Made by a program: the position numbers and the translations under genes | Shown: piece after piece, positions 4,356 to 50,164 of the stretch | Layout of the letters: each line of letters opens with the position of its first letter | How positions within the stretch are numbered: position 1 is the first letter of the stretch | Notes under the pieces: generated by a model | Told to the model about the DNA's origin: nothing | The model's database searches: none | The model's input: only the letters and a program-made list of their open reading frames with translations | Source of the DNA: an uncultured Dehalococcoidia bacterium | GTDB lineage: Bacteria; Chloroflexota; Dehalococcoidia; DSTF01; RBG-16-68-14 | Assembly: GCA_964418365.1 (NCBI GenBank) | Contig: CAYQLM010000003.1 | Location: 150-64,149, forward strand | Reading direction: 5' to 3' | Length of the DNA stretch: 64,000 nt

Positions 4356-5326
4356 GACAAGGCACCTTGCGTCTCGCCGAGGAGATCGCGCAGCACGTCG
4401 GGCGTCAGTGTTCCCTTGGGGAGCGTCAGCCGCTCGCAGCGCGCACCGGCTAGCCCGCGTGCGAGCACGTCGCGCCAGCGCGAGGCGCCGGACTCATCGC
4501 TTCGCAGCGCGTCAGACACACCGTAGACGTCGTCGTGGCGCGCCGCGGCGCGCGCGAGCGCTTCAATCACGTCCTCTGCCCGCGCCGGTTCGCTGCGCCG
4601 TCCCGATCCGTTGCCGCGTTCGAGCCAGACAATCCGTGACAGCGCACCGCCGTTCGTACCGCCCTCGAGACCGAGCTCATCCGGCGCAACGTGCACCAGC
4701 GGGTCGAGCCGTCTAGCGGTCACTAGCGCCGCGGTCGCCGCTGCCCGCAGCGCGAGGCCCCGCCGTGCAGACAAACGTCGCGCGAGCTGAGGGGCTGCGG
4801 CGAGCGCCGCGCTCCGTAGAGCGATGACGCGAAGCACGGGCGTCACAACGCCCGCCGCCGAGACGCCGATGTACTCGTCGCCCGAGAGACGCGCGCCGGA
4901 TCCGAGCGCCGCCAGCAGCAGCGCCGTCTTGCCCGAGCCGGTCTCGCCGGCCAGCACGGTGGCTTTGCCGCCGGACGCGAACGCCGCGCCCGTGATGAGC
5001 GCGATGTCCCGCTGGAGGAGCAAGCGCCGGAGCGCCGGCAGCAGCGCGATGTGCAGCGCGAGATACTCGCGCAGGAGCGGGCTGCGCCAGGAGAGCGCGA
5101 GCCGGCCATCGGGTCGCGCCGTCACGCCACAGCGCCACGGGACGCCCCTGTAACGTCCTTGCGCAATATCGCCGGTCACATCCTTAGCGCCCAGTTCCAA
5201 GAAAAGCGTCGGCACTGCGTGCGGCGCAACCTCGCTGCCGAGGCAGCGGGCGAGCAGCGCCGGCCGCTTCGAGGCGCGCAGCGTGACGGTGATGTCGGGC
5301 GGAACGTCGAACGACCAGTCGCTCAT
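4352..5326 (-). CDS. HprK-related P-loop kinase-domain protein
   Basis: Walker A VLAGETGSGKTALLLAALGSGARLSGDEYIGV resembles the HPr kinase/phosphorylase C-terminal domain. Start placed at MSDWSF (ATG 5324-5326), overlapping the upstream GT2 stop. The longer ORF-track N-terminus (to 5647) is antisense overlap of the GT2 gene. Confidence 0.5.
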   Translation of the reverse strand: MSDWSFDVPPDITVTLRASKRPALLARCLGSEVAPHAVPTLFLELGAKDVTGDIAQGRYRGVPWRCGVTARPDGRLALSWRSPLLREYLALHIALLPALRRLLLQRDIALITGAAFASGGKATVLAGETGSGKTALLLAALGSGARLSGDEYIGVSAAGVVTPVLRVIALRSAALAAAPQLARRLSARRGLALRAAATAALVTARRLDPLVHVAPDELGLEGGTNGGALSRIVWLERGNGSGRRSEPARAEDVIEALARAAARHDDVYGVSDALRSDESGASRWRDVLARGLAGARCERLTLPKGTLTPDVLRDLLGETQGALS

Positions 5327-9730: not shown

Positions 9731-10759
9731 CTACTGGTTCGCCGCGGGCGCCACGTCCGCTGACCTGCCTTCAGCGACAGCCAGGACTGCCTGCGCCAGC
9801 CGCTCCGGGTCGTGGCGGAGGTATGTCCCTGCGCTGGCGAGCGGCAGGCTGACGACGTGCGGGACCAGCCGGCGGCACTCCTCCAGGTCCGCCTCGACGA
9901 CGAAGGAACCCTCGGACTCATAGCGCTGCTGCACGCGTGGCGGCACCGGCGCCGAGTTGATCAGTACCGTATCGAGCGCGTCCTCCGCGCCCAGATACTC
10001 CCGCACGACGCGCACGAAGTCCGACGCCGCGAAGCCGTCCGATTCGCCGCGCTTGGTCGCCAAGTTGCACACGAAGACTTTGCGCCCCTTCGACGTGCGC
10101 ACGGCCTCCGGCACGCCATCGACAGCCAGGTTCGCGACGATGCTCGTGTACAGATCGCCCGGGCCGAAGACGACGACGTCCGCCTCGCGGATCGCCTGCG
10201 CGGCAGCGGGGTTCACGTACGCATGCGGATCGAGGTACACGTAATCGATCGGCACATCCACCTTCTCGCGCCGCACATCGAGCCGGTCCTCGCCCACGAT
10301 CACCGTGCCGTCGGTGAGGCGCGCGCAGAGGTCTGTCTTCGAGAGCGTCACCGGCAGCACTCGCCCGCGGATGCCGAGGATGTTGCCCGCCTCCTCGATT
10401 GCGCGGTCGATGCTGCCCGTGATCTCGACAAGTGCGGTGATGAACAAGTTGCCGAAGCTGTGGCCGTTCAGGCCGGAGCCTTTGGCGAAGCGGTAGCCGA
10501 AGAGCTGTCGCAGCAGCAGCGTCGCGTGCTCTTCAGGCGCGAGAGCCGCTAGGCACTGGCGGATGTCGCCCGGAGGCAGATGACCGAACTCGTCGCGCAG
10601 GCGGCCGGAGCTGCCACCGCGATCGGTCATCGCGACCACCGCGGTGATGTCGACCTCGTGCCGCTTGAGGCCGGTGAGGATAATGTGCGAGCCTGTCCCG
10701 CCGCCGATGACGACGATCTTCGGCTTCGTCGTGCGCAGATCGCGAGGGCCGGACGGCAT
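9731..10759 (-). CDS. yvcK: Gluconeogenesis factor / UPF0052 family protein (YvcK/CofD-like)
   Basis: 342 aa. KIVVIGGGTGSHIILTGLK...DITAVVAMTDRGGSSGRLR is the YvcK/CofD signature. Confidence 0.85.
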   Translation of the reverse strand: MPSGPRDLRTTKPKIVVIGGGTGSHIILTGLKRHEVDITAVVAMTDRGGSSGRLRDEFGHLPPGDIRQCLAALAPEEHATLLLRQLFGYRFAKGSGLNGHSFGNLFITALVEITGSIDRAIEEAGNILGIRGRVLPVTLSKTDLCARLTDGTVIVGEDRLDVRREKVDVPIDYVYLDPHAYVNPAAAQAIREADVVVFGPGDLYTSIVANLAVDGVPEAVRTSKGRKVFVCNLATKRGESDGFAASDFVRVVREYLGAEDALDTVLINSAPVPPRVQQRYESEGSFVVEADLEECRRLVPHVVSLPLASAGTYLRHDPERLAQAVLAVAEGRSADVAPAANQ

Positions 10760-10771
10760 GTGAGGCCCTGC

Positions 10772-12058
10772 CTACACGCCGAAGACGCGCTCTGCGTCCG
10801 GGCGGAGGCGGCCTGTAGGATCGAGGATGACGCGCGCGTGGCGAGCGACGAGGTCGAGATCGATCGCCTTGTGGGGACAGAGCAGGATCGCCGCGTCCAC
10901 GCTGCTGAGTAGCCGTGCGTCGAGCGGCTGCGATTGCAGTGTCTCCCCATCGATTGTCAGAGACGGCACGTGCGGGTCGTGGTAGAGCACGCGCGCGCCG
11001 GAACCCAGCAGCTCCGCTGCGACCGCGAACGCGACGGAGCCGCGCGTGTCATCGATGTTGGGCTTGTACGCAACGCCGAGCAGCAGCACGGCGGGCGAGG
11101 TCTTGTCGCCCAAGAGCGACAGCGCGCGCTGCGCTACGCGGCGCGGGAGCGCATCGTTCAGCTCTATCGCCGCGGCCGTGACCGGGAGCTCCGCGCCGGC
11201 GCGCTCCGCGGCCCACGCAAGGTAATGCGGCGCCATCGGGATGCAGCGCCCCCCGACGCCCGGGCCGGGCCGGTGTGCCATGAACGCGAACGGCTTCGTG
11301 CTCGCCGCGTCGATCACCTCTTGCACATCGAGGCCCATCGCGCCGCACATCACGGCCAGCTCGTTCGCCAGGCTGATGTTGACGAACCGGAACGTGTTCT
11401 CGAAGACCTTCGCCAGCTCGGCGATCTCCGGACTGGAAACCGCGTGCACCTGCGGCGCGACGAAGCGGTACAGCTCGGACGCGACGGCGGCGCACTGCGG
11501 CGTGATGCCACCGACGAGCTTCGGGATCGATTCCACCGGGTGGGCTGTGCTGCCCGGGTCGATGCGCTCCGGCGAGAAGGCAAGGAAGAAGTCGCGTCCC
11601 GCACACAAGCCCGACGCCTCGAGCGCCGGCAGAACGACATCGCGTGTGGTGCCGGGCGGGACGGTGCTTTCGAGCACGACGAGCATGCCCGGGTGCAGGT
11701 TCCGGCCGATGTCGCGCGCGGCGTCCGCGACGGCGCTCACGTCGGGAGTGCCGTCCGGCTGGTAGCTCGTCGGAGCGGCGATGATGACGCAGTCGGCCTC
11801 ACTGAGGCTTTCGAAGCGATCACTGAGCTTCCAAAACTGGTCAATGTCCGCCGGCCGCGTGCCGTTCGAGAGCGCTGCCACACACTCAGAGCTGACATCG
11901 ATGCCCAGGACCCGAAAGCCGGCGCGCATGAAGACGGCGGCCTGCGCCAGGCCGACGACGCCAAGTCCCACCACCGCGACCGTCGCCTCGCGGCTTCGGA
12001 TGCGGAACGAAACACTATCCGCTGAGACGGTAAGCGTCCCCACGTGTACCCTCAGCAA
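10772..12058 (-). CDS. Nucleotide-sugar dehydrogenase (UDP-N-acetyl-D-mannosamine/glucosamine dehydrogenase, WecC/WbpA-like)
   Basis: N-terminal Rossmann VAVVGLGVVGL; central FENTFRFVNISLANELAVMC; catalytic Cys region GVGGRCIP; C-terminal UDP-binding domain. Start is uncertain: the ORF begins at TTG 12058, with an alternative GTG 15 nt downstream. Confidence 0.8.
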   Translation of the reverse strand: MLRVHVGTLTVSADSVSFRIRSREATVAVVGLGVVGLAQAAVFMRAGFRVLGIDVSSECVAALSNGTRPADIDQFWKLSDRFESLSEADCVIIAAPTSYQPDGTPDVSAVADAARDIGRNLHPGMLVVLESTVPPGTTRDVVLPALEASGLCAGRDFFLAFSPERIDPGSTAHPVESIPKLVGGITPQCAAVASELYRFVAPQVHAVSSPEIAELAKVFENTFRFVNISLANELAVMCGAMGLDVQEVIDAASTKPFAFMAHRPGPGVGGRCIPMAPHYLAWAAERAGAELPVTAAAIELNDALPRRVAQRALSLLGDKTSPAVLLLGVAYKPNIDDTRGSVAFAVAAELLGSGARVLYHDPHVPSLTIDGETLQSQPLDARLLSSVDAAILLCPHKAIDLDLVARHARVILDPTGRLRPDAERVFGV

Positions 12059-12097
12059 CCTAACGAGTCGGGTCCCCGCCGTCTTACAAAAGACACA

Positions 12098-12117
12098 CCC
12101 CGCCGCGGACGGCGGGG
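12098..12117 (-). terminator. Perfect 8-bp GC hairpin (ccccgccg-cgga-cggcgggg) followed on the minus strand by UGUGUCUUUUGU; candidate intrinsic terminator/attenuator in the 5' leader of the minus operon
   Basis: Stem and U-rich tract read directly from sequence. A second copy of the left arm (ccccgccg, 12074-12081) could form an alternative pairing. Confidence 0.35.
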
Positions 12118-12133
12118 TTCAGTTCGCGATTCG

Positions 12134-12149
12134 GGGTCAACGTTGACCC
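12134..12149. promoter_or_regulatory. Perfect 16-bp palindrome GGGTCAACGTTGACCC in the divergent intergenic region; candidate operator
   Basis: Exact inverted repeat read from sequence. It lies between divergently oriented glycan operons. Confidence 0.4.
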
Positions 12150-12193
12150 GGAGCAGCCCGTTCTAACATAAGTAGCAGGGCCTGTCAAGCTTC

Positions 12194-12202
12194 TGTTATA
12201 AT
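12194..12202 (+). promoter_or_regulatory. Extended -10 promoter element (TGtTATAAT) for the plus-strand glycosyltransferase operon
   Basis: Perfect TATAAT with the upstream TG dinucleotide, in an unusually AT-rich patch ~150 nt upstream of the ATG at 12355. No canonical -35 at 17-bp spacing. Confidence 0.4.
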
Positions 12203-12354
12203 AGCCTCCCCGCCATCGTTATGGAGTCGGTGGGCACTCCATAGCGAATTTCACTATTCGCGAATCTGGGTCAGGAGGGCCTGGCTGTGTTGTATCTTGA
12301 GCGCCCTGGCCTGGACGCGCCAGAGCGGCCCGTTTTCAAGGCGGAGAACGGATC

Positions 12355-13404
12355 ATGAAGCTTGTCGTCATCATCCCGGCGCTCAACGAAGAACGGTCGC
12401 TGTCCGGCGTCCTCGATCGCATCCCCACGCACATCCCGAGCATCGATGAGATCGAGACTGTCGTCGTCGACGACGGCTCGATAGACGGTACGCCGCGCGT
12501 GGCGCTCGACCACGGCGCGGACGTCATCTCCCACAACACGAACCTCGGCCTCGGACGCGCGTTCGCGAACGGCATCGATGCCGCGCTGCGCCGCGGCGCC
12601 GATGTCATCGTCAACCTCGACGCGGACGGCCAGCACCCGCCCGAGGAGATCGCCAAGCTGATCGAGCCGATCCTTTCGGGCCGCGCCGACTTCGTGACGG
12701 CGACCCGCTTCTCTGACCCGGAGCTGCTCCCGGAGATGCCGGGGCTGAAGCGCTGGGGCAACCTGATGATGGCCAGACTGACCGGCTGGGCCTGCGGCCG
12801 CCCCTTCACCGATGTCGCTTGCGGCTTCCGCGCCTACTCGCGGAGCTGCGCGCTCAAGATCAACATCTTCGGTGCGTACACCTACACACAGGAGACCCTC
12901 GTCGACCTGCATCGCAAGTCGCTCACGATGGAAGAGGTGCCGATCGCGATCCGCGGCGTACGCGAGCACGGCCGATCGCGCATCGCCCACAGCGTGCTGC
13001 GCTACGGCCTGCGCACGTTCACCATCCTGGCGCGCGCCGTGCGTGACAGGCTACCGCTGACCTTCTTCGGCTCGATCGGCATCCTGCTCACACTGCTCGG
13101 CGCAGCGACAGAGATGGTCGTCCTGATCAACTTCATCATCTTCGGGCAAACCAGGCCGTATACCTCGTTCACCATCCTGGGCGCAATCTTCCTCATCTTG
13201 GGCGCGTTCTCCTTCCTCACGGCACTCCTCGCCGACATGCTCGGCCGTGTCCGTGAGACGCAGGAGCAGATTCTCTTCATCGAAAAGCGCCGCTACTACG
13301 ACGACCTCACGCGCGAGCACCTCGCGTTCTCGAGCAACGGCACCCAGGCCGCACCCACCATTACCCCGACGGAGAAGGAGCGGGTTCCGGCAGGACGTCA
13401 ATGA
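12355..13404 (+). CDS. Polyprenol-phosphate sugar synthase (GT2, GtrB/Ppm1-like) with C-terminal TM helices
   Basis: 349 aa. VVIIPALNEE...VVVDDGSIDGT...NLDADGQH, then 2-4 TM helices. Paralogous in architecture to 6343..7509. Confidence 0.8.
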   Translation: MKLVVIIPALNEERSLSGVLDRIPTHIPSIDEIETVVVDDGSIDGTPRVALDHGADVISHNTNLGLGRAFANGIDAALRRGADVIVNLDADGQHPPEEIAKLIEPILSGRADFVTATRFSDPELLPEMPGLKRWGNLMMARLTGWACGRPFTDVACGFRAYSRSCALKINIFGAYTYTQETLVDLHRKSLTMEEVPIAIRGVREHGRSRIAHSVLRYGLRTFTILARAVRDRLPLTFFGSIGILLTLLGAATEMVVLINFIIFGQTRPYTSFTILGAIFLILGAFSFLTALLADMLGRVRETQEQILFIEKRRYYDDLTREHLAFSSNGTQAAPTITPTEKERVPAGRQ

Positions 13405-14648
13405 CCGCCGGTTCCCAGCGTCCTGAAGGCGGCGGCAACGGGGCTGTCCGCGTCACCCTCATCAGCACACTGCCACCGCACAAAGGCGTCGCCGATTACA
13501 CGGCGCATCTCGTCGCCGGCCTCGCGAACACGCCCGGCGTCTCGCTCGAGGTGATCGACTTCGCGAGCCTGTACCCGCGCCGCCTGTACCCCGGCGGCGA
13601 GCTACAGGATTCGACAGCGCGGCGACCGCAGTTCCCCAACGTCCGCGTCCGGACCATGCTGCGCTGGTGGAACCCGTTCTCGTGGCTCTGGGCGGGGCTC
13701 ACGCTCAAGGGGCAGGTCGTTCACGCGCAGTGGTGGAGCTTCATCCTCGCGCCGCAGTACATCGCCGTGCTGTCGCTGGCGCGGCTGCGCCGCCGGCGCG
13801 TCGTCATCACCGTCCACAACGTCGAGCCGCACGAGGCCGGCCGCTGGCAGCGCGTCCTCAACCGCCTCGTGCTGCGCCTGGCCGACACGTACGTCGTCCA
13901 CGACGCGCGCAGCCGCGATCGGCTGACCGAGTTCGTCGCGGCGGCCAAACCCATCGAGGTGATCCCGCACGGCATCCTGGCCTCGTCCGGCGATCGACTT
14001 TCGCTCGCCGGCGCCCGGCGCATGTTGCGCATGGCCGCGGACGACAAGATCGTGCTCTGTTTCGGCAATATCCGGCCCTACAAAGGCGTCGACGTCTTGC
14101 TGCGCGCCTTCGCCCGCGTGCGCGAGGGCGTTCCGGAGGCGCGCCTCGTGATCGCCGGTAAGCCATGGGAGGACTGGTCCCCCTACGAGCGCCTGATCGA
14201 TGAGCTCGATCTCGTTGACGCGGTCGACACGCATCTGGGGTTCGTGCCTGCGACGCAGGTCGGGGCGCTCTTTGCTGCAGCAGACGTTGTGGCGCTGCCC
14301 TACCTTCGCTTCGACGCCCAGAGTGGCGTCGGCGCGCGCGCGCTCTACCACGAGAAGGCGCTCATCGTGACCGATGCCGGTGGTCTGCCGGAGCTCGTCG
14401 CCGACGAACGCGCCATCGTCCCGCCCGGCAACGTCGAGCAGCTCGCGGACGCGCTCGTCGCGGTCCTGACGGACGACGCGCTCCGCGCCAAGCTCGAGGC
14501 CGGCTCCGTTGCGCGCGCCCGCGACCTGAGCTGGGATGCCATCGCTGCGCAGACGGCGCGCCTCTACGCGTCGCTGGCCGATAGGAGCGTCCGTGACGCG
14601 CCGTTGCCGCTGGCCGAGGAGCGGCCGCGACAAGAGGAGCACGTGTAG
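13401..14648 (+). CDS. Family 4 glycosyltransferase (GT-B)
   Basis: 415 aa. C-terminal GT4 domain (KIVLCFGNIRPYKGVDVLLRAF...ALIVTDAGGLPELV). ATGA overlap with the upstream gene. Confidence 0.8.
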   Translation: MTAGSQRPEGGGNGAVRVTLISTLPPHKGVADYTAHLVAGLANTPGVSLEVIDFASLYPRRLYPGGELQDSTARRPQFPNVRVRTMLRWWNPFSWLWAGLTLKGQVVHAQWWSFILAPQYIAVLSLARLRRRRVVITVHNVEPHEAGRWQRVLNRLVLRLADTYVVHDARSRDRLTEFVAAAKPIEVIPHGILASSGDRLSLAGARRMLRMAADDKIVLCFGNIRPYKGVDVLLRAFARVREGVPEARLVIAGKPWEDWSPYERLIDELDLVDAVDTHLGFVPATQVGALFAAADVVALPYLRFDAQSGVGARALYHEKALIVTDAGGLPELVADERAIVPPGNVEQLADALVAVLTDDALRAKLEAGSVARARDLSWDAIAAQTARLYASLADRSVRDAPLPLAEERPRQEEHV

Positions 14649-23265: not shown

Positions 23266-24738
23266 ATGCTACGCATAAGGACGCTCACCAGGCACGCGAA
23301 GGAACACCGGCTGCTCGCCGGCATTGGCGCGAACCTGATTGCGGAGCTCGCGCGCGCCGCGATGTTGCCGCTGATCGCCATCGCCGCTGCGCGCTACCTC
23401 GGGTCGGAGGGGTACGGCATCTTCGCGACGGGACAAGCGCTCCAAGCCTTCGCGGCGATATTCGGCGGCTTTGGGCTCTTGTACGCCATTCTGCAGCTCG
23501 GCGCGCGGGGAGAAGAGGAGCTGCCGGTGCTGTTGAGCAACAGCATCGTCGGCGCATTAGGTACAACGCTCGTCGCGTACGCCGCGCTCGCGGGTTGGGT
23601 CTATCTGTTCGACTACAGCCACACGGTGCGCGTCGTCGTCCTGGTGATGGGGACGGCGCTCTTCCCCATGGCGCTCAACGTGCAGTTCGGGGCGGCGCTT
23701 CAGGTGCGCGGCCGCTACACCGCGATCGCGATCGGCGGCGTTGTCGCCGCCGTCGCGAACGTGGCCTACGCGCTCACCGTCGTGCTGGCCGATCTGGGGA
23801 TCACGATGCTGGCGCTGTCGCCGTTCATCGCCAGCACGGCGATGTCGGTCTTCACCGCCTGGCTACTCCGGAACGACTTCTCTCTCCGCATCAGCCCCGC
23901 CCGGATCCAGTCGTTGTTCCGCACCGGCTTTCTCTTCGGCGTCAGTGACTTCCTCTATTTCATCTACCTCAGCATCGATCTCGTGATGCTATCGCTGCTG
24001 GTGGGAGCCCGTCAGGTGGGTTTGTACAACATTCCGGTGCGCATGCTGGTCGTTGCATACCTCTTACCGATCGTGGTCTTCAACCGCGTGCTCTACCCAC
24101 GCTATTTCGAGTGGAGCCAGGTCGATCGAGAGCGGCTGCGGCGCACCTACGTCCTGACGTCGAAGGGCGTTTTGTTCATCGGCATGCTGGCGGCGACGGC
24201 CCTCGTGCTCCTGGCCGATCCGTTCGTGCCCAAGGTCTTCGGCGGTTCGTTCCAGGAGTCCGCGCTGCTGCTGCGCATCCTGGCGCTGGCGTTGCCGCTG
24301 CGCTATCTCTCCGGCTCGGCGTCCGCCGTGCTTGCCACGAACGATAAGATCGGCACGCGGGTGCGCGTTCAGGCGGCGACGGCGGCGCTCAACCTGGCGC
24401 TCTGCTTCATTCTGATCCCAACGCTGAAGGCGCGCGGCGCGTCGATTGAGACCGTGATCACCGAGGCGTTCCTGCTCGTCGCGCAGGTCGCCATCGTGCG
24501 CTGGCAGGTGCTCGACACGGATCTTGTGAAAGAGGCGCGGCTGTGGCTCTTCGCGCTTCCGTATGCCGCACTCAGCGTTGCCACGTTGGGCCCGGAACAC
24601 CCGCTGGTCTTCACTGCAGCCGCCATCGTTGCCGTCGGCAGCCTCGCGATCATCGCGTGGCCGCTTAAGTATTTCGATGGACTGAGCTTGCCGCAGATCA
24701 CGCGGCCAGCGGAAGCTGAGCACGCGCGTCTCGCCTAG
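23266..24738 (+). CDS. Oligosaccharide/polysaccharide flippase (Wzx-like, MOP superfamily)
   Basis: 490 aa, ~12-14 TM helices, typical polysaccharide-biosynthesis-protein organisation. Last gene of the plus operon. Confidence 0.7.
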   Translation: MLRIRTLTRHAKEHRLLAGIGANLIAELARAAMLPLIAIAAARYLGSEGYGIFATGQALQAFAAIFGGFGLLYAILQLGARGEEELPVLLSNSIVGALGTTLVAYAALAGWVYLFDYSHTVRVVVLVMGTALFPMALNVQFGAALQVRGRYTAIAIGGVVAAVANVAYALTVVLADLGITMLALSPFIASTAMSVFTAWLLRNDFSLRISPARIQSLFRTGFLFGVSDFLYFIYLSIDLVMLSLLVGARQVGLYNIPVRMLVVAYLLPIVVFNRVLYPRYFEWSQVDRERLRRTYVLTSKGVLFIGMLAATALVLLADPFVPKVFGGSFQESALLLRILALALPLRYLSGSASAVLATNDKIGTRVRVQAATAALNLALCFILIPTLKARGASIETVITEAFLLVAQVAIVRWQVLDTDLVKEARLWLFALPYAALSVATLGPEHPLVFTAAAIVAVGSLAIIAWPLKYFDGLSLPQITRPAEAEHARLA

Positions 24739-25784: not shown

Positions 25785-25801
25785 TCCTACAGCACGGCGA
25801 A

Positions 25802-27295
25802 TCAGTGGCGTCGCTCGAAGGTGAAGAGGCGGTCCCGTGGGTCGAGCATTGCCTCGACCTGCGCCGCGTTCCAGAATGGAGGCTCCTTCAGCGGCACGGA
25901 TCTGACCTCGACCTTGCCGTAGTACAGCTCGACGAGCCGGTCCAGTGGGGCATCGCTGAAGATGACGAGATTGTACGGTGTGTTGACGACGTAGAGCGTT
26001 CCGCCGGAGGGAAGCGTGGCGAATTGGTCGCGGAGGTCGGTGATGAACTGGTGGTTGGCGTCAGAGGCTTTGGAGATCGTGTTGTCTGGTGGAGGCGCAG
26101 TCTTGGAAGCGATGTCTTGGAGTTTCCACACCAGCAGCGCGCCCAGCACCACGGCAGCCAGGCCCACGTACGGAGGCATTGCGCGGGCCGGCGCGAAGAG
26201 CCGCCTCATGGAGGCTGTAGACGCAAGATCGACCAGGCGCATGGCCACCGCCGTCACGATCAACGCCAGCGGCAACCCGGGTAGGTATAGGAGTCGCCCA
26301 AACACCCCTAAGATCAGCGTCGAATCGGGGGCGAGTGCGCTGATGTACCAGACGACGGCAAAGGCGGCCAACGGCGACCAGCGCCACTGTGTGAGGAGAA
26401 ACGCGCAGAAGGTGAACATGACGGCCGAGACATAGGGCGCCGTACTATCGAGCGGGCTCACTGGATAAGCAGAAAGGCTGAAGTATGCGACATACTTGTC
26501 GTACATGTGCCAGCCGATCTGGAAGCCGAGGGAGAGGTGTGCATAGTGCCTGTGCACCCACTCCTGGATCGCAACATACGGAAGGAACACGAGCGCGACC
26601 GGGAGGAATGGGAGCCAGGACGTTGGCTGCAGCGCTTGGCGTGGCCCGCGATGCATGAGGAAATACCAGGCAACGAGTGCCACGACGAGCGGCACCGTTA
26701 CCGCGTGATATAACAAGGCGGCCGCAAATGCGGCGAGAAACGCACCGTAGTACCAGAAGCGGCGAGGTCCGCCGTCGGTGTACTTGATGAAGAGAAGGAA
26801 GGCGGCGAGATAGCAGAACACCGCCAGCGGTGTGTTGCCGTTGACCACCCAGCGCACCGCATCGCCATAGGCGAAATGAACGCCGAAGATGAGCGCGGCC
26901 AAGTGCGCGGCCCAGACACGTTGCGTCAGCCGCTGCGCCAGCATCCAAAACAGAGCAACGCAGCCGAGGTGCACGGCCAGATTGAACGCGTGATACGGCG
27001 CAGCGTGGAGCCCGAACAGCGAATACTCCGCGCGAAAAGTGATCACGTAGAGAGGCCGGTACTCGTTGAACTCAGGGGTGGGACGCGGATCGCGGTAATC
27101 GAAGACGTGGGCGAGCCAGGTATGCCAGGGGACGGTCTGCGCGCGGCGGAGGAATAGGAAGTCGTCCCCGAAGAACCAATCGTTCAAGGAGGGCGCATAG
27201 AGGACGAAGGTAAACAGCAGGATCGCGGCGAGACCTGCCGCGGGCGAAAGCAGCAGCTCCCAAGTGGTGGCGGGGAGCCGCGTTAATCGATTCAA
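25802..27295 (-). CDS. GT-C-fold polytopic membrane glycosyltransferase candidate
   Basis: ~498 aa from a TTG start near 27295 (start uncertain). The ORF-track 5' extension to 28063 overlaps the acyltransferase gene and is not coding. Loop-1 YAPSLNDWFFGDDFLFLRRAQ has a DD motif; ~12 TM helices. A TATTATACT -10-like element and GAAAGGAG lie just upstream. Confidence 0.5.
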   Translation of the reverse strand: MNRLTRLPATTWELLLSPAAGLAAILLFTFVLYAPSLNDWFFGDDFLFLRRAQTVPWHTWLAHVFDYRDPRPTPEFNEYRPLYVITFRAEYSLFGLHAAPYHAFNLAVHLGCVALFWMLAQRLTQRVWAAHLAALIFGVHFAYGDAVRWVVNGNTPLAVFCYLAAFLLFIKYTDGGPRRFWYYGAFLAAFAAALLYHAVTVPLVVALVAWYFLMHRGPRQALQPTSWLPFLPVALVFLPYVAIQEWVHRHYAHLSLGFQIGWHMYDKYVAYFSLSAYPVSPLDSTAPYVSAVMFTFCAFLLTQWRWSPLAAFAVVWYISALAPDSTLILGVFGRLLYLPGLPLALIVTAVAMRLVDLASTASMRRLFAPARAMPPYVGLAAVVLGALLVWKLQDIASKTAPPPDNTISKASDANHQFITDLRDQFATLPSGGTLYVVNTPYNLVIFSDAPLDRLVELYYGKVEVRSVPLKEPPFWNAAQVEAMLDPRDRLFTFERRH

Positions 27296-27378
27296 GGCAA
27301 GGGCTCGCGCCAGGGTGCTCGGTCTCCTTTCACTGGTAGCAAGTATAATAGGCGCGCGTCGTTGAGGGCGCTGGCGTC

Positions 27379-30219: not shown

Positions 30220-30356
30220 GGAAGAACGCCGGATCCTAGCGATGGTGTCCGAGCGCGGCGGTGGGAGCGCCACCAACCATGGAAGCTGCGAGGCTCCAGC
30301 AGCGGCGCTGCATCACGAACAGAATCGCGGGGCGGCGCAGGCCATCATGGTGCTCC

Positions 30357-31133
30357 CTATCGGCGGTCATGTATCAACTCCGACGACGCCGTCTTCGATA
30401 GGGCCACAAGGAATCGATCATACGAGACGGGTGCGGGAAACCGCACCGCTTCGTACAGCGTCGCGGGATCATCCAGGAAGTCGGGGAATCGTACGACCGA
30501 ATGGGGAAGCCGGTGATCATGGATTGCCATCATGCAGAGACCCAGCCCGTAGATGAATGAGTTCTTCGCGGTGGATCTAGACCTGAATAAGAGATTGCCG
30601 GCCGCGAAATGGCTTTCCAGCATCGCGTCGAAATTTCTTACGCAGACGAGAACGTGATCGATCTGCGCTCCGGAAGCAGCCCAAACGCCGAGTGTCCAGC
30701 AGAAGGCCGGGTCTTTAACAACCTGGAAACGACGAGACATCTCCACCAATACCGCTCGGTGGGCCTCGACGACACCCTCGAAGCGTTCCCACGGCACAAG
30801 TTCTAATGGCTCCGCTCGTCGGCCCAAACAACGCAGAGCGACCCGTTCGATCGTATTGCTCAGCCACCAACTGAGCTTGCCGCGCGGCGGGTCGTCCGGA
30901 TCACTAAGCAGACGGCGCACCGCTTCATTCACCGTCCTGCTTGCAAGAATGCTCAGGCCCAGGTCGCGGATGACACGATGATTTTGCCGAAAGATGTCCG
31001 GAGCTTCATACCCAGCGTTTTTTTCGGAGACCAATGGCCTCCCGGATCGAACCCCAACTCGCGATAGAGTTGCGCCAGGAGCGACGTGCCGCTTCTTCCG
31101 GTTCCCGTGATTATTATCAAGCGTTCACCTCGG
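30357..31133 (-). pseudogene. Sulfotransferase (Stf0/PAPS-dependent type) interrupted by a single-base frameshift in a T7/A7 homopolymer
   Basis: Upstream frame from TTG ~31133 (GAGGTG RBS) encodes MIIITGTGRSGTSLLAQLYRELGFDPGGHW, the 5'-PSB P-loop of sulfotransferases. The frame breaks at ttttttt 31018-31024. The downstream frame (ORF 30357..31034) carries the 3'-PB-like VVKDPAFCWTLGVW. Combined length ~259 aa, the expected size. Confidence 0.55.
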
Positions 31134-31159
31134 ATATGGGCGTTGGACAGCTCCGACGC

Positions 31160-31789
31160 TCAGCCTTCCCGCCCGGCGATGGCCGGTTGCTCCTTGATCG
31201 CGCGCAGGATGAGCGCCGCTTCCTGGATACCGAGCAAGTGTCCCCAGAAGCGCTCGCAAAGGTATTGGGAGTTGCGGCCGTGGTTCGCCAGGACATGAAC
31301 AACTTGGTTCACAACACGCCGCAGGAAGGCAAACTCCGCAGCATTCTGAATGGAGAAGTTGAGCCGGGAATGCTCGATCCGGAACCTTGCTTTCGCATAG
31401 TAGGCGAAGGCTCTGCCATCGAAATACGTGTCATCGAAGTAAGCGAAAGTGGCGATGAACAGGCCACGTCGATGTGTGGGATCCTTCCATATATCATAGG
31501 ATGACGAGCCGTGAGGAACTTTGATGTACACAAGGGCGTTCGGGCGGCAGACGCGCCAGATCTCATCCATGAACGCCAGGAAATCATCCAGGTGCTCCAG
31601 CAGGTGGTACGCGTAAACCGCGTCGACCGAGTTATCCCGAAACGGCAGTCCGTAGTTGAAGTGAGCCAGCACATCGACGGCTGAAGCACATGCCATGTCA
31701 ACGCCAATCGACCCGGGGATCTTCTTCTGGCCGCAGCCCAAGTCAACCTTTACCGCTGCACGGGCACAAAGACCCGGCCGCGTCTTCAT
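31160..31789 (-). CDS. Class I SAM-dependent methyltransferase
   Basis: 209 aa. VDLGCGQKKIPGSIGVDM, LPFRDNSVDAVYAYHLLEHL, ALVYIKVPH. GAGGAGG RBS. Noticeably lower GC than its surroundings. Confidence 0.75.
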   Translation of the reverse strand: MKTRPGLCARAAVKVDLGCGQKKIPGSIGVDMACASAVDVLAHFNYGLPFRDNSVDAVYAYHLLEHLDDFLAFMDEIWRVCRPNALVYIKVPHGSSSYDIWKDPTHRRGLFIATFAYFDDTYFDGRAFAYYAKARFRIEHSRLNFSIQNAAEFAFLRRVVNQVVHVLANHGRNSQYLCERFWGHLLGIQEAALILRAIKEQPAIAGREG

Positions 31790-41068: not shown

Positions 41069-41153
41069 CGTTGATCTGCTACCATCCCGAGAAATAGCCC
41101 GGCTGCGGCCGCGTTGGTATACTTGAGCACCTTTCGCCCGGGGGAGTGCGCAA

Positions 41154-43604
41154 TTGCAGCGAAGTGACACCGTGAGGGCAACGCCGGCCGTGTATGGCGG
41201 GCTGTTCTTCACGACACTCAGCACGCTGATGTACGAAGTTCTGCTCACGCGGATCTTCAGCGTGACGATGTGGTACCACTTCGCGTTCGTAGCAGTTTCG
41301 GTCGCGTTGTTCGGCATGACCGTCGGCGCGCTGATTATCCACCTCGTGCCGAGTCGTTTCACACAAGACGACACGCGCGACCGCCTCGCTCAAGCATCGT
41401 TGCTGTTCAGCGTCTCGATAGTGCTGAGCTTTCTCACGCAGTTGGTCATCCCGTTCGACGCCCACTGGTCGCTCACGGCGATCTACTCCACGTCGCTCAT
41501 CTACCTGGTCATCTCGGTGCCGTTCATCTTCAGCGGCGTTATCGTCGCACTGACGCTGACTCGTTTTCCAAACCAGGTGAGCCGGCTCTATGCGGCCGAT
41601 CTGATGGGTGCGGGCCTGGGGACGGTGACGCTAGTGTGGCTGATCAACGTCCTCGGCGATGGGCCGTCCACCGTCGTGGTCGTCGCGGCGCTGGCGGGCA
41701 TAGGTGCGTGCCTGTTCGCAACCGCAGCGGGCCGTTCACGCCTGCTCAGGTTCGCGGCCGCCGTCGCTGTACTCTGGGCGATCGGCGGCATCGGGAATGC
41801 CTTCTCCGCCCAGCATTACCATCCGATCCTACGCATTCGCTGGGCGAAGGGCGCGGAAGAAACAACAGCCCGCTACGAGCGGTGGAACGCGTTCTCGCGC
41901 ATTCGAGTAGTAGGCGACCCGAATACGGTCTCGCCACCCTTCGGATGGGGTTTCAGCCCGGCTCTGCCGGCCAACGCCCAGGCGCACCAGATGGGCCTGA
42001 ACATTGACGCAACGGCTGCGACGTTCTTGACTAAGTTCAGTGGCAACACGGCCGACGTCGACTACCTTCGCTATGACGTGGTCAACATTGCTCACTACCT
42101 GCGATCGAATGCGCGCGTGTTCGTGATTGGGGCCGGCGGGGGTCGCGATGTGCTCACTGCCCTCCTCTTTCAGCAGCAGTCGGTCACAGCGGTAGAGATT
42201 AACAACGCGATCTTGAAGGCCGTAAACAACAAGTATGGCGACTTCACCGGTCACCTTGATGAGCTGCCCAACGTCCACTTCGTGAACGACGAGGCGCGCA
42301 GCTATCTGGCCCGCTCCGACGACAAGTATGACATTATTCAGCTCTCGCTCATCGATACCTGGGCAGCGACAGCGGCGGGCGCTTTCTCCCTCTCAGAGAA
42401 CTCGCTCTACACCGTGGAGGCTTGGGACACGTTCCTCAATCGCTTGGCTCCAAACGGTGTGCTAAGCGTGTCGCGCTGGTACCACGTCGACAGGCCGTTG
42501 GAGTCGTACCGGGTCACGGCGCTGGCCGCCGCAGCACTGCGGCGCCGCGGCATCACGAATCCGCGGGACCATATCATCCTGATTCGAAATCCGGCGACGT
42601 CTTACTTGGGGCCGGGCATTGCCGTGAGTACGATCCTGGTGAGCCCGGAGCCATTCTCACAGGCCGACATCGATCGGGTCGAGCAGGTGGCTCAGGACCT
42701 GCGAGACGAGGTGGTCCTTGTACCGGCGCCGGCACCAAGCGATCCGGTGTTTGCTGCGATCGCGGACGCGAAAGACCCGAACTCCGTCCCCCTCGGCATT
42801 CCCGCCAATATCTCGGCGCCCACGGATGACCGGCCGTTCTTCTTCCAGATGATCCGCTTCCAGGACATCTTCAGCCGGTCGCTCTACGGCGTCGGGACCC
42901 AGTATCTGACGCAACCGGTGCTCGTGCTCTTCAGCCTCGCCATCGCCATGCTCGTTCTAACCAGTCTCTGCATTCTGCTGCCACTCGCCATCACGACCAG
43001 CCGGCAGGCATTGCACGGCATGGCGCCGTTCGTGGTCTTTTTCGGCGGGATCGGTCTGGGGTTCTTGCTGTTGGAGATCGCGCAATTGCAGCGGCTCATC
43101 ATCTTTCTCGGCCATCCTACGTATGCCCTCTCGGTCGTGCTGTTCTCGTTGTTGGTTTTCAGCGGTATTGGCAGCTTTGTAACGGAGCAGATCATCAGTC
43201 CGGGCCGACGGGCGTTCCTGTTACTGCCGTTTGTCGCACTCCTCGCGGTGCTGGTAGCGGCCGGGGTTGCGACGCCCCATATCACGCACAGCTTCGACGA
43301 CGCGACCACGCCAGTGCGCATCATTACCGCGGTAGCGCTTCTCGCGCCGATGGGTCTCCTCATGGGCATGCCGTTCCCCATCGGCATGACGCTGGCGTCC
43401 CGGCAGAAGGACGCGCCCACCGCGTTCTTCTGGGGGATCAACGGAGCAACCTCCGTGCTCGCCTCCGTGCTCGGCGTTGCCATCGCGCTGCAATGGGGCA
43501 TCTCGATTGCATTTTGGGTGGGCGTCGGCTGGTATGCCGTCGCAGCGCTAGCCCTGGGAAGCATCGTCAGCAGAGGACGTTCAACGGCGGGTACCTATGT
43601 ATGA
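41154..43604 (+). CDS. Fused polytopic membrane protein with central spermidine-synthase-like (PABS, class I MTase fold) domain
   Basis: 816 aa. N-terminal ~7 TM helices. Central VFVIGAGGGRDVLTALLF...VTAVEINNAILKA...YDIIQLSLIDTW (GxGxG and acidic residues of aminopropyltransferases). C-terminal ~6 TM helices. Confidence 0.6.
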   Translation: MQRSDTVRATPAVYGGLFFTTLSTLMYEVLLTRIFSVTMWYHFAFVAVSVALFGMTVGALIIHLVPSRFTQDDTRDRLAQASLLFSVSIVLSFLTQLVIPFDAHWSLTAIYSTSLIYLVISVPFIFSGVIVALTLTRFPNQVSRLYAADLMGAGLGTVTLVWLINVLGDGPSTVVVVAALAGIGACLFATAAGRSRLLRFAAAVAVLWAIGGIGNAFSAQHYHPILRIRWAKGAEETTARYERWNAFSRIRVVGDPNTVSPPFGWGFSPALPANAQAHQMGLNIDATAATFLTKFSGNTADVDYLRYDVVNIAHYLRSNARVFVIGAGGGRDVLTALLFQQQSVTAVEINNAILKAVNNKYGDFTGHLDELPNVHFVNDEARSYLARSDDKYDIIQLSLIDTWAATAAGAFSLSENSLYTVEAWDTFLNRLAPNGVLSVSRWYHVDRPLESYRVTALAAAALRRRGITNPRDHIILIRNPATSYLGPGIAVSTILVSPEPFSQADIDRVEQVAQDLRDEVVLVPAPAPSDPVFAAIADAKDPNSVPLGIPANISAPTDDRPFFFQMIRFQDIFSRSLYGVGTQYLTQPVLVLFSLAIAMLVLTSLCILLPLAITTSRQALHGMAPFVVFFGGIGLGFLLLEIAQLQRLIIFLGHPTYALSVVLFSLLVFSGIGSFVTEQIISPGRRAFLLLPFVALLAVLVAAGVATPHITHSFDDATTPVRIITAVALLAPMGLLMGMPFPIGMTLASRQKDAPTAFFWGINGATSVLASVLGVAIALQWGISIAFWVGVGWYAVAALALGSIVSRGRSTAGTYV

Positions 43605-45278: not shown

Positions 45279-45356
45279 GCCCCGGTAGCTCAGATTGGAC
45301 AGAGCAACGGTTTCCTAAACCGTGGGTCGCAGGTTCGAATCCTGCCCGGGGTACCA
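45279..45356 (+). tRNA. tRNA-Arg (anticodon CCT)
   Basis: Cloverleaf folded by hand: acceptor gccccgg/ccggggt (G1-U wobble), D-arm gctc-agattggac-agagc, anticodon arm acggt-ttCCTaa-accgt, T-arm gcagg-ttcgaat-cctgc, discriminator A, encoded CCA. Confidence 0.85.
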
Positions 45357-49712: not shown

Positions 49713-50001
49713 CCGCCAGGATAAGGCTGAGAACGTAGCTTCCTCTGGGTGTCAGCGCGCGGACGGGGTCGCCGCTTGAGGCACCACCAGTCGGGGGCAA
49801 GTATACAGCGTTGGCGAACGTTGTCAACGTGGCCGGCAGGGCACCAACCGCGCAAAAGAGCTTCGACACAAACGGCGCCGTGTTCTCGTAGTGCGCCCCC
49901 GCCGCACGCGCTCTGACCCTCGGGGGAGCCATGCCCTCAGCACCGGCCCCGGCTGCGCTTGACGCGGGCGCTCGAACGTGTCCGGCTCTGGAACGAAACG
50001 G

Positions 50002-50029
50002 TTGACGGACCCGGGCGCGGTGCTATACT
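50002..50029 (+). promoter_or_regulatory. Sigma70-like promoter TTGACG-N16-TATACT upstream of the lipoprotein hydrolase gene
   Basis: Hexamers and 16-bp spacing read directly. It lies ~135 nt upstream of the ATG at 50165. Confidence 0.4.
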
Positions 50030-50164
50030 GGCCAGCACCCAGCAGTAGGCGAGCCCGCCAAGCCATGTCCTGTAACGTTGGCGCCCCTGCGGGAGGGGAA
50101 CAGAGGTGGCATGGCCTCGAGAAGCGCTCGGCAAGACCTCCCTTCAAACGGCAATCGACAGCGC

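Follow-up and report, generated by a model that had tools for sequence, protein, structure and literature searches.

An intergenic gap of 311 bp (12044-12354) was analyzed within a 64,000-nucleotide stretch of DNA from an uncultured Dehalococcoidia bacterium (contig CAYQLM010000003.1; 65% GC), the whole of which is termed the window. The gap separates two oppositely oriented cell-envelope sugar operons. The minus-strand operon starts with a gene for a nucleoside diphosphate (NDP)-sugar dehydrogenase followed by a YvcK/CofD-like gene, while the plus-strand operon is ~12 kb long, with its last gene ending near 24738, and has the order GT2 (polyprenyl-phosphate-sugar-synthase-like), two GT4 genes, GT-C, methyltransferase, two further GT4 genes and flippase. 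An initial annotation, made from the sequence alone, had described the gap as a divergent control region with four elements, namely, a GC hairpin with a U-rich tract, a second copy of the left arm of this hairpin, a perfect palindrome and an extended -10 promoter. All four were present at the coordinates given when the sequence from 11900 to 12500 was read. The comparisons described here indicated that this is a real, conserved and conventional divergent control region but that the elements differ widely in their conservation.

Look-ups of GT2 homologs yielded 11 distinct relatives in which the genes have this divergent arrangement and the GT2 proteins are 73 to 97% identical; the same protein sequence as in the window was found on three identical contigs. 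These sequences were divided into two clades: clade A, consisting of the window sequence, L164 (97% GT2 identity), L165 (86%) and L166/L167 (83%), and clade B, consisting of L168 to L174 and L176 (73 to 80%). The nearest named GT2 protein was from a Dehalococcoidia metagenome-assembled genome (66% identity). Scans of genomes and metagenomes with the GT2 alignment produced mostly distant GT2 homologs among the matches listed, of which only those of L084 and L085 were close (65 to 67%). As the dehydrogenase gene of L084 and L085 is located upstream on the same strand, the gap in these two loci is not orthologous. Alignments and anchored extraction of the orthologous gaps gave a mean column identity of 64%, with short invariant blocks amid divergent sequence (Table 1). 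The proposal that the two glycan operons are separated by a divergent control region was upheld.

Two of the invariant blocks, GTCAAG and TAACATAA, correspond to a -35 element and an extended -10 element on the minus strand, and hence the gap holds two putative promoters arranged back to back. The plus-strand promoter, P(+), contains the extended -10 element of the initial annotation, and the pattern TGnTATAnT was invariant in all of the relatives. The minus-strand promoter, P1(-), had been missed; its spacing was invariant in the relatives, and the pattern TTGACA-N13-15-TGNTA had only this one occurrence in the window, compared to an expected number of 0.08. The -10 regions of the two promoters are near mirror images (CTTaTGTTAgA on the minus strand and CTTcTGTTAtA on the plus strand), with the hexamers at 12160-12165 (minus) and 12197-12202 (plus) being 32 bp apart and the predicted starts being ~56 bp apart. 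The patch containing the P(+) core had been described as the most AT-rich of the window. This held at a scale of 40 nt, for which 12164-12203 tied for the lowest GC content (37.5%), but not at larger scales, as the promoter-core patch ranked third at 100 nt and was outside the six lowest at 60, 200 and 300 nt.

Similar promoter sequences were observed elsewhere. An extended -10 candidate, TGGTATACT, is present at 41115-41123, upstream of an open reading frame (ORF) at 41154, and a promoter candidate with the same layout as P1(-), TTGACG-N14-TGC-TATACT, is located at 50002-50029, upstream of an ORF at 50078. Two copies of TTGACG-N15-AATGTTACA, also similar to P1(-), were detected on the minus strand of L084 (241-269 and 1482-1510), whose GT2 protein is 65% identical. 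The two candidates in the window suggest that TTGAC-N14-TGnTAnnnT is the promoter pattern of this lineage.

The leader of the dehydrogenase-YvcK operon had been proposed to contain a terminator-like hairpin. This hairpin, read on the plus strand as CCCCGCCG-CGGA-CGGCGGGG (12098-12117), has an invariant stem, with predicted energies in the relatives of -14.4 to -19.3 kcal/mol and with a closing pair that is G-C except in three relatives, which have A-U. The minus-strand tail (GUGUCUUUUG) has 6 U in 10 nt, and 5 to 6 U in 10 nt were found in 10/11 relatives, in agreement with the proposal. A terminator scan detected the hairpin and tail, and 7 terminator-like sites were reported for 11000-13500 versus 1.4 in shuffled sequences. 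A minus-strand RNA starting at ~12153 would have the palindrome as its 5' hairpin and then, successively, the GC hairpin, the U-rich tail, a first conserved box (box 1), 14 nt that include the second arm copy, a second box (box 2), the Shine-Dalgarno sequence and the GTG codon.

Part of box 2 is able to pair with the Shine-Dalgarno region, forming a second small hairpin, termed the anti-Shine-Dalgarno hairpin, in which 96% of the cells of the alignment were paired (RNAalifold and pair counts) and the loop-closing pair varied between G-C, C-G, U-G and G-U across the relatives. When the GC and anti-Shine-Dalgarno hairpins were counted together, 98.3% of the cells were paired, with double changes at two pairs, a score that was equalled by 1 of 500 shuffles, while slid controls gave 40 to 59%. 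A covariance model built from nine minus leaders recovered L174 (102 bits) and L176 (95 bits), both from outside the training set, and found no other match in the window or in 97 other, non-orthologous loci. An outer helix enclosing the terminator was also considered and was rejected, being 85% paired but irregular, derived from the same alignment and in conflict with the palindrome hairpin.

Leader peptides were examined as a further candidate feature and rejected, as a 7-codon ORF at 12221 was confined to clade A and an upstream ORF of 10 to 22 codons to clade B, with none being shared. The clade B ORF (minus strand; 2783-2830 in L168 and at the same place in L169 to L176) has an AUG just upstream of the GC hairpin, begins MAAPPHAAG and crosses the hairpin. 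It ends after 10 to 22 codons in some of these relatives, while in L169 and L173 it joins the reading frame of the dehydrogenase.

Taken one by one, the elements of the gap are near to chance for a window of 65% GC. There were 7 perfect 16-bp palindromes in the window compared to ~2.9 in shuffled sequences (the six others are at 4538, 17754, 32136, 43798, 56347 and 60854), 5 hairpins of the 8-bp/4-nt type compared to 2.35 and 15 occurrences of CCCCGCCG compared to an expected 8.6. For TGNTATANT, 3 occurrences were present versus 0.63 expected, and all 3 were in gaps directly upstream of long ORFs. The sequence of the elements, their conservation, their pairing potential and their clustering were all observed directly.

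Table 1. Positions of genes, invariant blocks and proposed elements in and around the gap
Feature	Sequence	Position	Strand	Remarks
YvcK/CofD-like gene		9731-10759	-	downstream of dehydrogenase, followed by large membrane protein gene
NDP-sugar dehydrogenase gene		10772-12043	-	423 aa, as called on identical contigs
Dehydrogenase start codon	GTG	12041-12043	-	start aligned in all orthologs
Dehydrogenase Shine-Dalgarno sequence	GAGGG	12049-12053	-	read from sequence; end 5 nt upstream of GTG
Anti-Shine-Dalgarno hairpin	UCGUUAG (part of box 2) pairing CUGAGG (Shine-Dalgarno region)	12050-12066	-	small hairpin
Box 2	CTCGTTA	12061-12067	-	AACGA invariant on plus strand
Invariant block	AACGA	12062-12066	+	always 14 nt from CTT.CA
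Second-arm copy (10-mer)	CCCCGCCGTC	12074-12083	+	minus-sense RNA GACGGCGGGG; includes CCCCGCCG at 12074-12081
Box 1	TGTAAGA	12082-12088	-	TGAAAGA in clade B
Invariant block	CTT.CA	12083-12088	+	
U-rich tail	UGUGUCUUUU	12088-12097	-	3' of GC hairpin
GC hairpin	A-CCCCGCCG-UCCG-CGGCGGGG-U	12097-12118	-	-18.6 kcal/mol; terminator-like
Invariant block	CCCCGC..GCGGGG	12098-12117		11 relatives
Direct repeat	TTCGCGATTCGGGGTCA	12123-12139	+	second copy 12257-12273, 88% identity, offset 134 nt
Perfect 16-bp palindrome	GGGTCAACGTTGACCC	12134-12149		would form hairpin ~5 nt from predicted 5' end of minus transcript
P1(-), extended -10 (predicted)	TGT-TAGAAC	12160-12168	-	predicted start near 12153; TTATGTTA invariant
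Invariant block	TAACATAA	12164-12171	+	minus strand TTATGTTA
P1(-), -35 hexamer (predicted)	TTGACA	12183-12188	-	17 nt upstream of TAGAAC; GTCAAG invariant
Invariant block	GTCAAG	12184-12189	+	minus strand TTGAC
P(+), extended -10 (predicted)	TGTTATAAT	12194-12202	+	predicted start near 12209
Invariant block	TG.TATA.T	12194-12202	+	all relatives
Invariant block	CCCCGC	12208-12213	+	at predicted plus start
10-mer	CCCCGCCATC	12208-12217	+	at predicted plus start; CCCCGC invariant
5'-proximal hairpin of plus leader	UCGUUAUGGAGU-CGGUGGGC-ACUCCAUAGCGA	12216-12247	+	predicted in most relatives
Second hairpin and tail of plus leader	CUGGGUCAGGAGGGCCUGG, tail CUGUGUUGUA	12266-12284	+	in clade-A-only insertion; absent from clade B
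Hairpin over GT2 Shine-Dalgarno sequence	CCGUUUUC/GAGAACGG	12330-12351	+	covers GGAG (12343-12346)
GT2 gene start	ATG	12355	+	

The dehydrogenase start is most likely the GTG at 12043, after the GAGGG sequence. This gene had been named wecC, a name that was not sustained at the equivalog level, as the WecC model gave 186 bits against a cut-off of 459 and the protein passed only the NDP-sugar dehydrogenase subfamily model. The YvcK protein scored above the cut-off of its own family model.

In the initial annotation, the two CCCCGCCG copies were taken to switch the terminator in an attenuator-like manner and the palindrome to be the operator of a dimeric regulator. The complementarity behind the switch is real, as the minus-sense CCCCGCCGUC (12117-12108) can form 8 bp with CGGCGGGG or a perfect 10 bp with GACGGCGGGG (12083-12074). 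The second partner, however, lies 3' of the U-tract and would be made after the termination decision, and hence it cannot influence termination in cis. Moreover, its GCGGGG was fully kept in only 7/11 relatives and was degenerate in the other 4/11, and the predicted minimum-energy fold of the minus leader retains the local GC hairpin. No antiterminator was seen upstream of the GC hairpin, where clade A has its own hairpin and clade B is unstructured.

The palindrome has no mismatch, and a search of the 64-kb window detected no other copy even when up to 3 mismatches were allowed. Its perfection and uniqueness speak for an operator, but the lack of a second copy in the window can also be held against one. 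The palindrome sequence was kept only in L164, the 97% relative. At the same site, L165 (86%) has GGGTC-CAGC-GACCC, the inverted repeat of L166 (83%) is another one and clade B lacks any; in addition, no regulator gene adjoins the gap, and the window contains 7 palindromes of this kind. Comparison of the relatives largely refutes the combination of switch and operator, which we regard as the least probable of the explanations considered. The three distinct clade A sequences form 5' hairpins of differing sequence (-11.5 to -15.9 kcal/mol; z-scores of -1.3 to -2.1), while clade B is unstructured at this position. The palindrome is most likely a species-specific form of a 5'-terminal hairpin rather than an operator, and this most eye-catching feature of the gap is also the least conserved.

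The hexamer AACGTT, present at 12139, had 9 occurrences in the window, 5 of which were intergenic (12139, 41067, 49817, 50074 and 62283), with intergenic DNA making up 16% of the window. The longer AACGTTG was intergenic in 4 of 5 cases, among them TAACGTTGAT, located 48 nt upstream of the 41115 promoter, and GAACGTTGTCAACGTG at 49817. This may reflect a binding motif or may be a mere effect of AT-richer gaps.

The sequence CCCCGCCnTC was detected three times in 64 kb when both strands were searched, and all three copies are in the gap, at 12074 (plus), 12117-12108 (minus) and 12208 (plus). For the shorter CCCCGCC, 4 of the 25 window copies are in the gap. The other extended -10 promoters of the window do not have CCCCGCC, indicating that the 10-mer is not a general feature of start sites. 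The three copies most likely represent putative recognition sites of one locus-specific factor that would couple both operons, and they could act either as DNA or as RNA.

An alternative explanation is that the GC inverted repeat and the extra copies of the 10-mer function as DNA rather than as RNA, being operators through which one sequence-specific transcription factor could act on both operons, the sites being one over the P(+) start, a palindromic one at 12098-12117 and one in the spacer between box 1 and box 2. We consider this possibility doubtful, although it is the most serious of the alternatives. It is consistent with the confinement of the 10-mer to the gap, the absence of CCCCGCC from the other two extended -10 promoters of the window, the lack of a complementary partner for the plus-start copy within its own leader, the constancy of the 20-bp inverted repeat (an invariant CCCCGC-N8-GCGGGG with a variable centre) and the matching substitutions in the two direct copies of L166. 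Retention of the U-rich tail on one strand only is, however, not explained by a DNA site. Further difficulties are the degeneracy of the 12074 copy in 4/11 relatives, the lack of an adjoining regulator gene, the GC-rich and asymmetric nature of the site and the irregular spacing of the copies (24, 91 and 134 bp).

Two of the 10-mer copies lie in a direct-repeat block (12073-12083 and 12207-12217) whose offset of 134 nt is shared by the longer direct repeat of Table 1. The two-block score on the 134-nt diagonal was 19, a score reached by 0 of 300 shuffles, and a repeat pair of 14 nt is present at this offset in L166. Further direct repeats between the two halves of the gap were observed at 12148-12162 and 12320-12334 (CCGGAGCAGCCCGTT/CCAGAGCGGCCCGTT) and at 12174-12184 and 12273-12283 (AGCAGGGCCTG/AGGAGGGCCTG). 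The first of these pairs is collinear with the repeats at the 134-nt offset, a possible sign that a leader module was duplicated in tandem long ago.

The bipartite boxes are the least understood part of the gap. The pattern TGWAAGR-N14-YTCGTTW (12088-12061) had a spacing of exactly 14 nt in all of the relatives, with no constraint on the spacer sequence, while the distances around the boxes varied (3 to 10 nt from the hairpin to box 1 and 12 to 17 nt from box 2 to GTG). Box 1-N14-box 2 is unique in the window and, in 1.1 Mb of collected loci, was found only in the orthologous gaps and as two isolated matches. An inverted or direct repeat was rejected as there was no symmetry between the boxes, and a housekeeping-type promoter was rejected as the spacing of 20 to 21 nt is too long. 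Pairing with the Shine-Dalgarno region accounts in part for box 2, and the boxes may constitute an additional promoter, close to the gene and used by an alternative sigma factor, from which transcription would avoid the terminator.

Promoters for extracytoplasmic function (ECF) sigma factors, such as SigW, SigX and SigM of Bacillus subtilis, have tgaAAC at -35 and CGT at -10 with spacers of 14 to 17 bp (PMC5758882). The boxes resemble these promoters in their fixed spacing, free spacer, downstream CGT(T), upstream G-W-A-A and association with envelope genes; the layout TGWAAG-N17-CGTT has an invariant spacing and provides a CGT-type -10 element at ~14 to 17 bp. They differ in having AAG in place of the hallmark AAC in all 11 relatives (PMC5758882), in the lack of an ECF sigma gene among the Pfam-scanned ORFs of the window, in the very short leader that is implied and in the additional pairing of box 2 with the Shine-Dalgarno region.

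An extension of this resemblance would be that P1(-) yields only an independent RNA of ~60 to 65 nt, consisting of the 5' hairpin and the terminator, and that a proximal ECF-like promoter, in which TGWAAG (-35) is followed after 17 nt by CGTT (-10), serves the dehydrogenase-YvcK operon. Promoters are commonly insulated by a terminator placed immediately before the -35 box. The invariance of the boxes and of their 14-nt separation, in a gap where indels are common elsewhere, and the near invariance within clade B of the segment from the P1 -10 to the hairpin also fit with a short RNA and an ECF-like promoter. We nonetheless find this explanation rather unlikely. Every relative has the AAG substitution, and neither an ECF sigma nor an anti-sigma gene was detected by Pfam scans of the ORFs predicted in the 64 kb. 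In clade B, such a promoter would leave a leader of only ~6 nt. Shine-Dalgarno pairing accounts for box 2 at least in part, and the transcribed segment, except for the hairpin, is not conserved between the clades.

The leader of the plus-strand operon would be ~146 nt in length and begins with an invariant CCCCGCC. Its 5'-proximal hairpin has 12 bp and -18 kcal/mol, with a z-score of -3.1 for the first 52 nt. Compensatory GGGG/CCCC changes were present in L166, and in clade B another stem, GGAACGG/CCGUUCC on a UCGU/ACGA base, occupies the same place. Some 35 nt of the leader are a clade-A-only insertion. Masking of the GT2 Shine-Dalgarno sequence was examined and rejected, as the hairpin covering this sequence was predicted in the window and L164 but not in L165 or L166, the pairings differed among relatives and the z-scores were not significant.

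The initial annotation had also raised the possibility of a cis-regulatory RNA in this leader. An Rfam search of the window and 10 orthologous loci found no match to a cis-regulatory family at the gathering score, and the best matches by E-value within 11700-12700 in a permissive search were all far below this score; these results, and leader z-scores of -1.24 (plus) and -0.65 (minus), argue against an RNA of a known class. Alternatively, the conserved 5' hairpin, with its CGGU[AG]G loop, could be the core of a dedicated cis-acting RNA or DNA signal for the long operon, such as an undescribed riboswitch or a loading site for a processive antiterminator in the manner of RfaH/ops, LoaP or EAR. 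Long polysaccharide operons often use processive antitermination, and the operon is of this kind, being ~12 kb and polysaccharide-making. The position of the hairpin is conserved while the stems are swapped between the clades, and most relatives have CGGT[AG]G about equally far from the start, with L165 having GTCGGTAG, to be compared with the ops sequence GGCGGTAG. Against these observations, Rfam, which produced no match, includes both JUMPstart and EAR, no NusG paralog is encoded in the window, the only structures conserved in a leader with a z-score of -1.24 are simple hairpins, ~35 nt are specific to clade A and a 6-mer match in 146 nt is weak evidence. The chance that the leader carries such a signal is, hence, in our estimation slim.

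Taking these results together, we favor, with moderate confidence, the interpretation that the gap is a compact, conserved divergent control region composed of two promoters, a leader terminator, the bipartite boxes and a locus-specific 10-mer. Two promoters of the housekeeping-sigma type would be located back to back within 45 bp. P(+), with its extended -10 TGTTATAAT, would drive the ~12-kb operon of GT2, GT4, GT4, GT-C and further genes up to the flippase, and P1(-), with TTGACA-N14-TGT-TAGAAC, would drive transcription toward the dehydrogenase-YvcK operon. Minus transcripts would meet the GC hairpin and its U-rich tail 36 to 65 nt after the start, and the hairpin would act as a leader terminator or attenuator, such that only a fraction of the transcripts reads through. 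As there is no competing upstream structure, control of read-through would need a trans-acting factor. In the RNA that reads through, the small hairpin would allow CUCGUUA to mask part of the Shine-Dalgarno sequence. The plus leader would open with CCCCGCCAUC, followed by the conserved hairpin.

A number of observations weigh against this interpretation. Promoter activity, as well as the identity and role of any factor, is deduced from sequence, and the start sites and termination are predictions. P(+) has no match to a -35 element, a scan for promoters in general did not detect a canonical -35/-10 pair here, and the clade A hexamer of P1(-), TAGAAC, does not end in the usual T. The U-tract is not continuous, and in L170 and L171, where the tail has been lost by a 7-nt deletion, it contains only 2 U. 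The covariation amounts to two or three events between two clades, and the symmetry of the inverted repeat is equally consistent with a palindromic DNA site and with an RNA stem. Conserved structure in the two leaders is limited to single hairpins, and neither leader, as a whole, folded above the level of shuffled sequences (z-scores of -0.65 for the minus and -1.24 for the plus leader). For the boxes, the AAG found in all 11 relatives departs from the ECF pattern, and a start 7 nt after CGTTA would leave a leader of only 6 to 10 nt. Finally, the Pfam scans of ORFs predicted in the 64-kb window detected neither an ECF sigma, an anti-sigma nor a NusG paralog, and no other regulator gene adjoining the gap.

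The 5' end of the plus leader, UCCCCGCCAUC, is the same as the 5' arm of the terminator and, hence, is complementary to CGGCGGGG and GACGGCGGGG. The three 10-mer copies and the leader terminator might form a single device coupling the two operons. If so, the nascent plus transcript, 56 bp away, or a dedicated factor reading the 10-mer could compete for the terminator arm, and read-through into the dehydrogenase and YvcK genes would be tied to the activity of the glycosyltransferase operon. We view such a device as a long shot. The favored arrangement of promoters, terminator, boxes and 10-mer is in other respects a conventional regulatory gap that opens no long-standing question. Its value is as a testable map of the possible control of a very large glycan locus in an uncultured high-GC lineage, and the recurring TTGAC-N14-TGnTA may help with promoter annotation in a poorly studied group.

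Nearly all of the window from ~900 to 40600 is occupied by this one very large cell-envelope glycan locus, which has many GT2, GT4 and GT-C (PMT_2/GT87/DUF6541) genes together with methyltransferases, an acyltransferase, a flippase, an ABC ATPase, RmlD and epimerases. A gene finder based on GC3 called no gene in three gaps of 1 to 1.6 kb (4356-5322, 25785-27378 and 30277-31789), which may contain genes of atypical composition or be long non-coding stretches. The sole Rfam match in the window was a tRNA gene at 45279-45353 (plus strand).

The gap was compared with several described systems. Symmetric bidirectional promoters have -10 elements that coincide although they are on opposite strands (Warman et al., bioRxiv 10.1101/2020.01.31.928960; PMC12825309). 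P(+) and P1(-) resemble this class in being opposite-strand promoters that share one short AT-rich core and have near-mirror -10 regions; they differ in that the hexamers, rather than coinciding, are 32 bp apart, with starts ~56 bp apart, and in that the -35 element of one promoter lies beside the extended -10 element of the other. The minus leader is like the trp, pyr and T-box leader attenuators in having a conserved GC stem-loop and a U-rich tract between a predicted promoter and the first gene of a biosynthetic operon. Unlike these leaders, it has no upstream antiterminator, no conserved leader peptide and no known fold for binding a ligand or tRNA, and its sole alternative partner is downstream of an interrupted U-tract. 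Stem-loops at the 5' terminus, such as those in the leaders of Escherichia coli ompA and B. subtilis aprE, stabilize mRNA. The likeness of the gap to the ompA and aprE type lies in the location of hairpins only a few nucleotides from each of the predicted 5' ends and in the retention of a hairpin while its sequence varies, in the palindrome region within clade A and in the plus leader in both clades. The gap differs in that its 5' ends are predictions, clade B has no hairpin on the minus side and ~8 unpaired nt precede the hairpin on the plus side.

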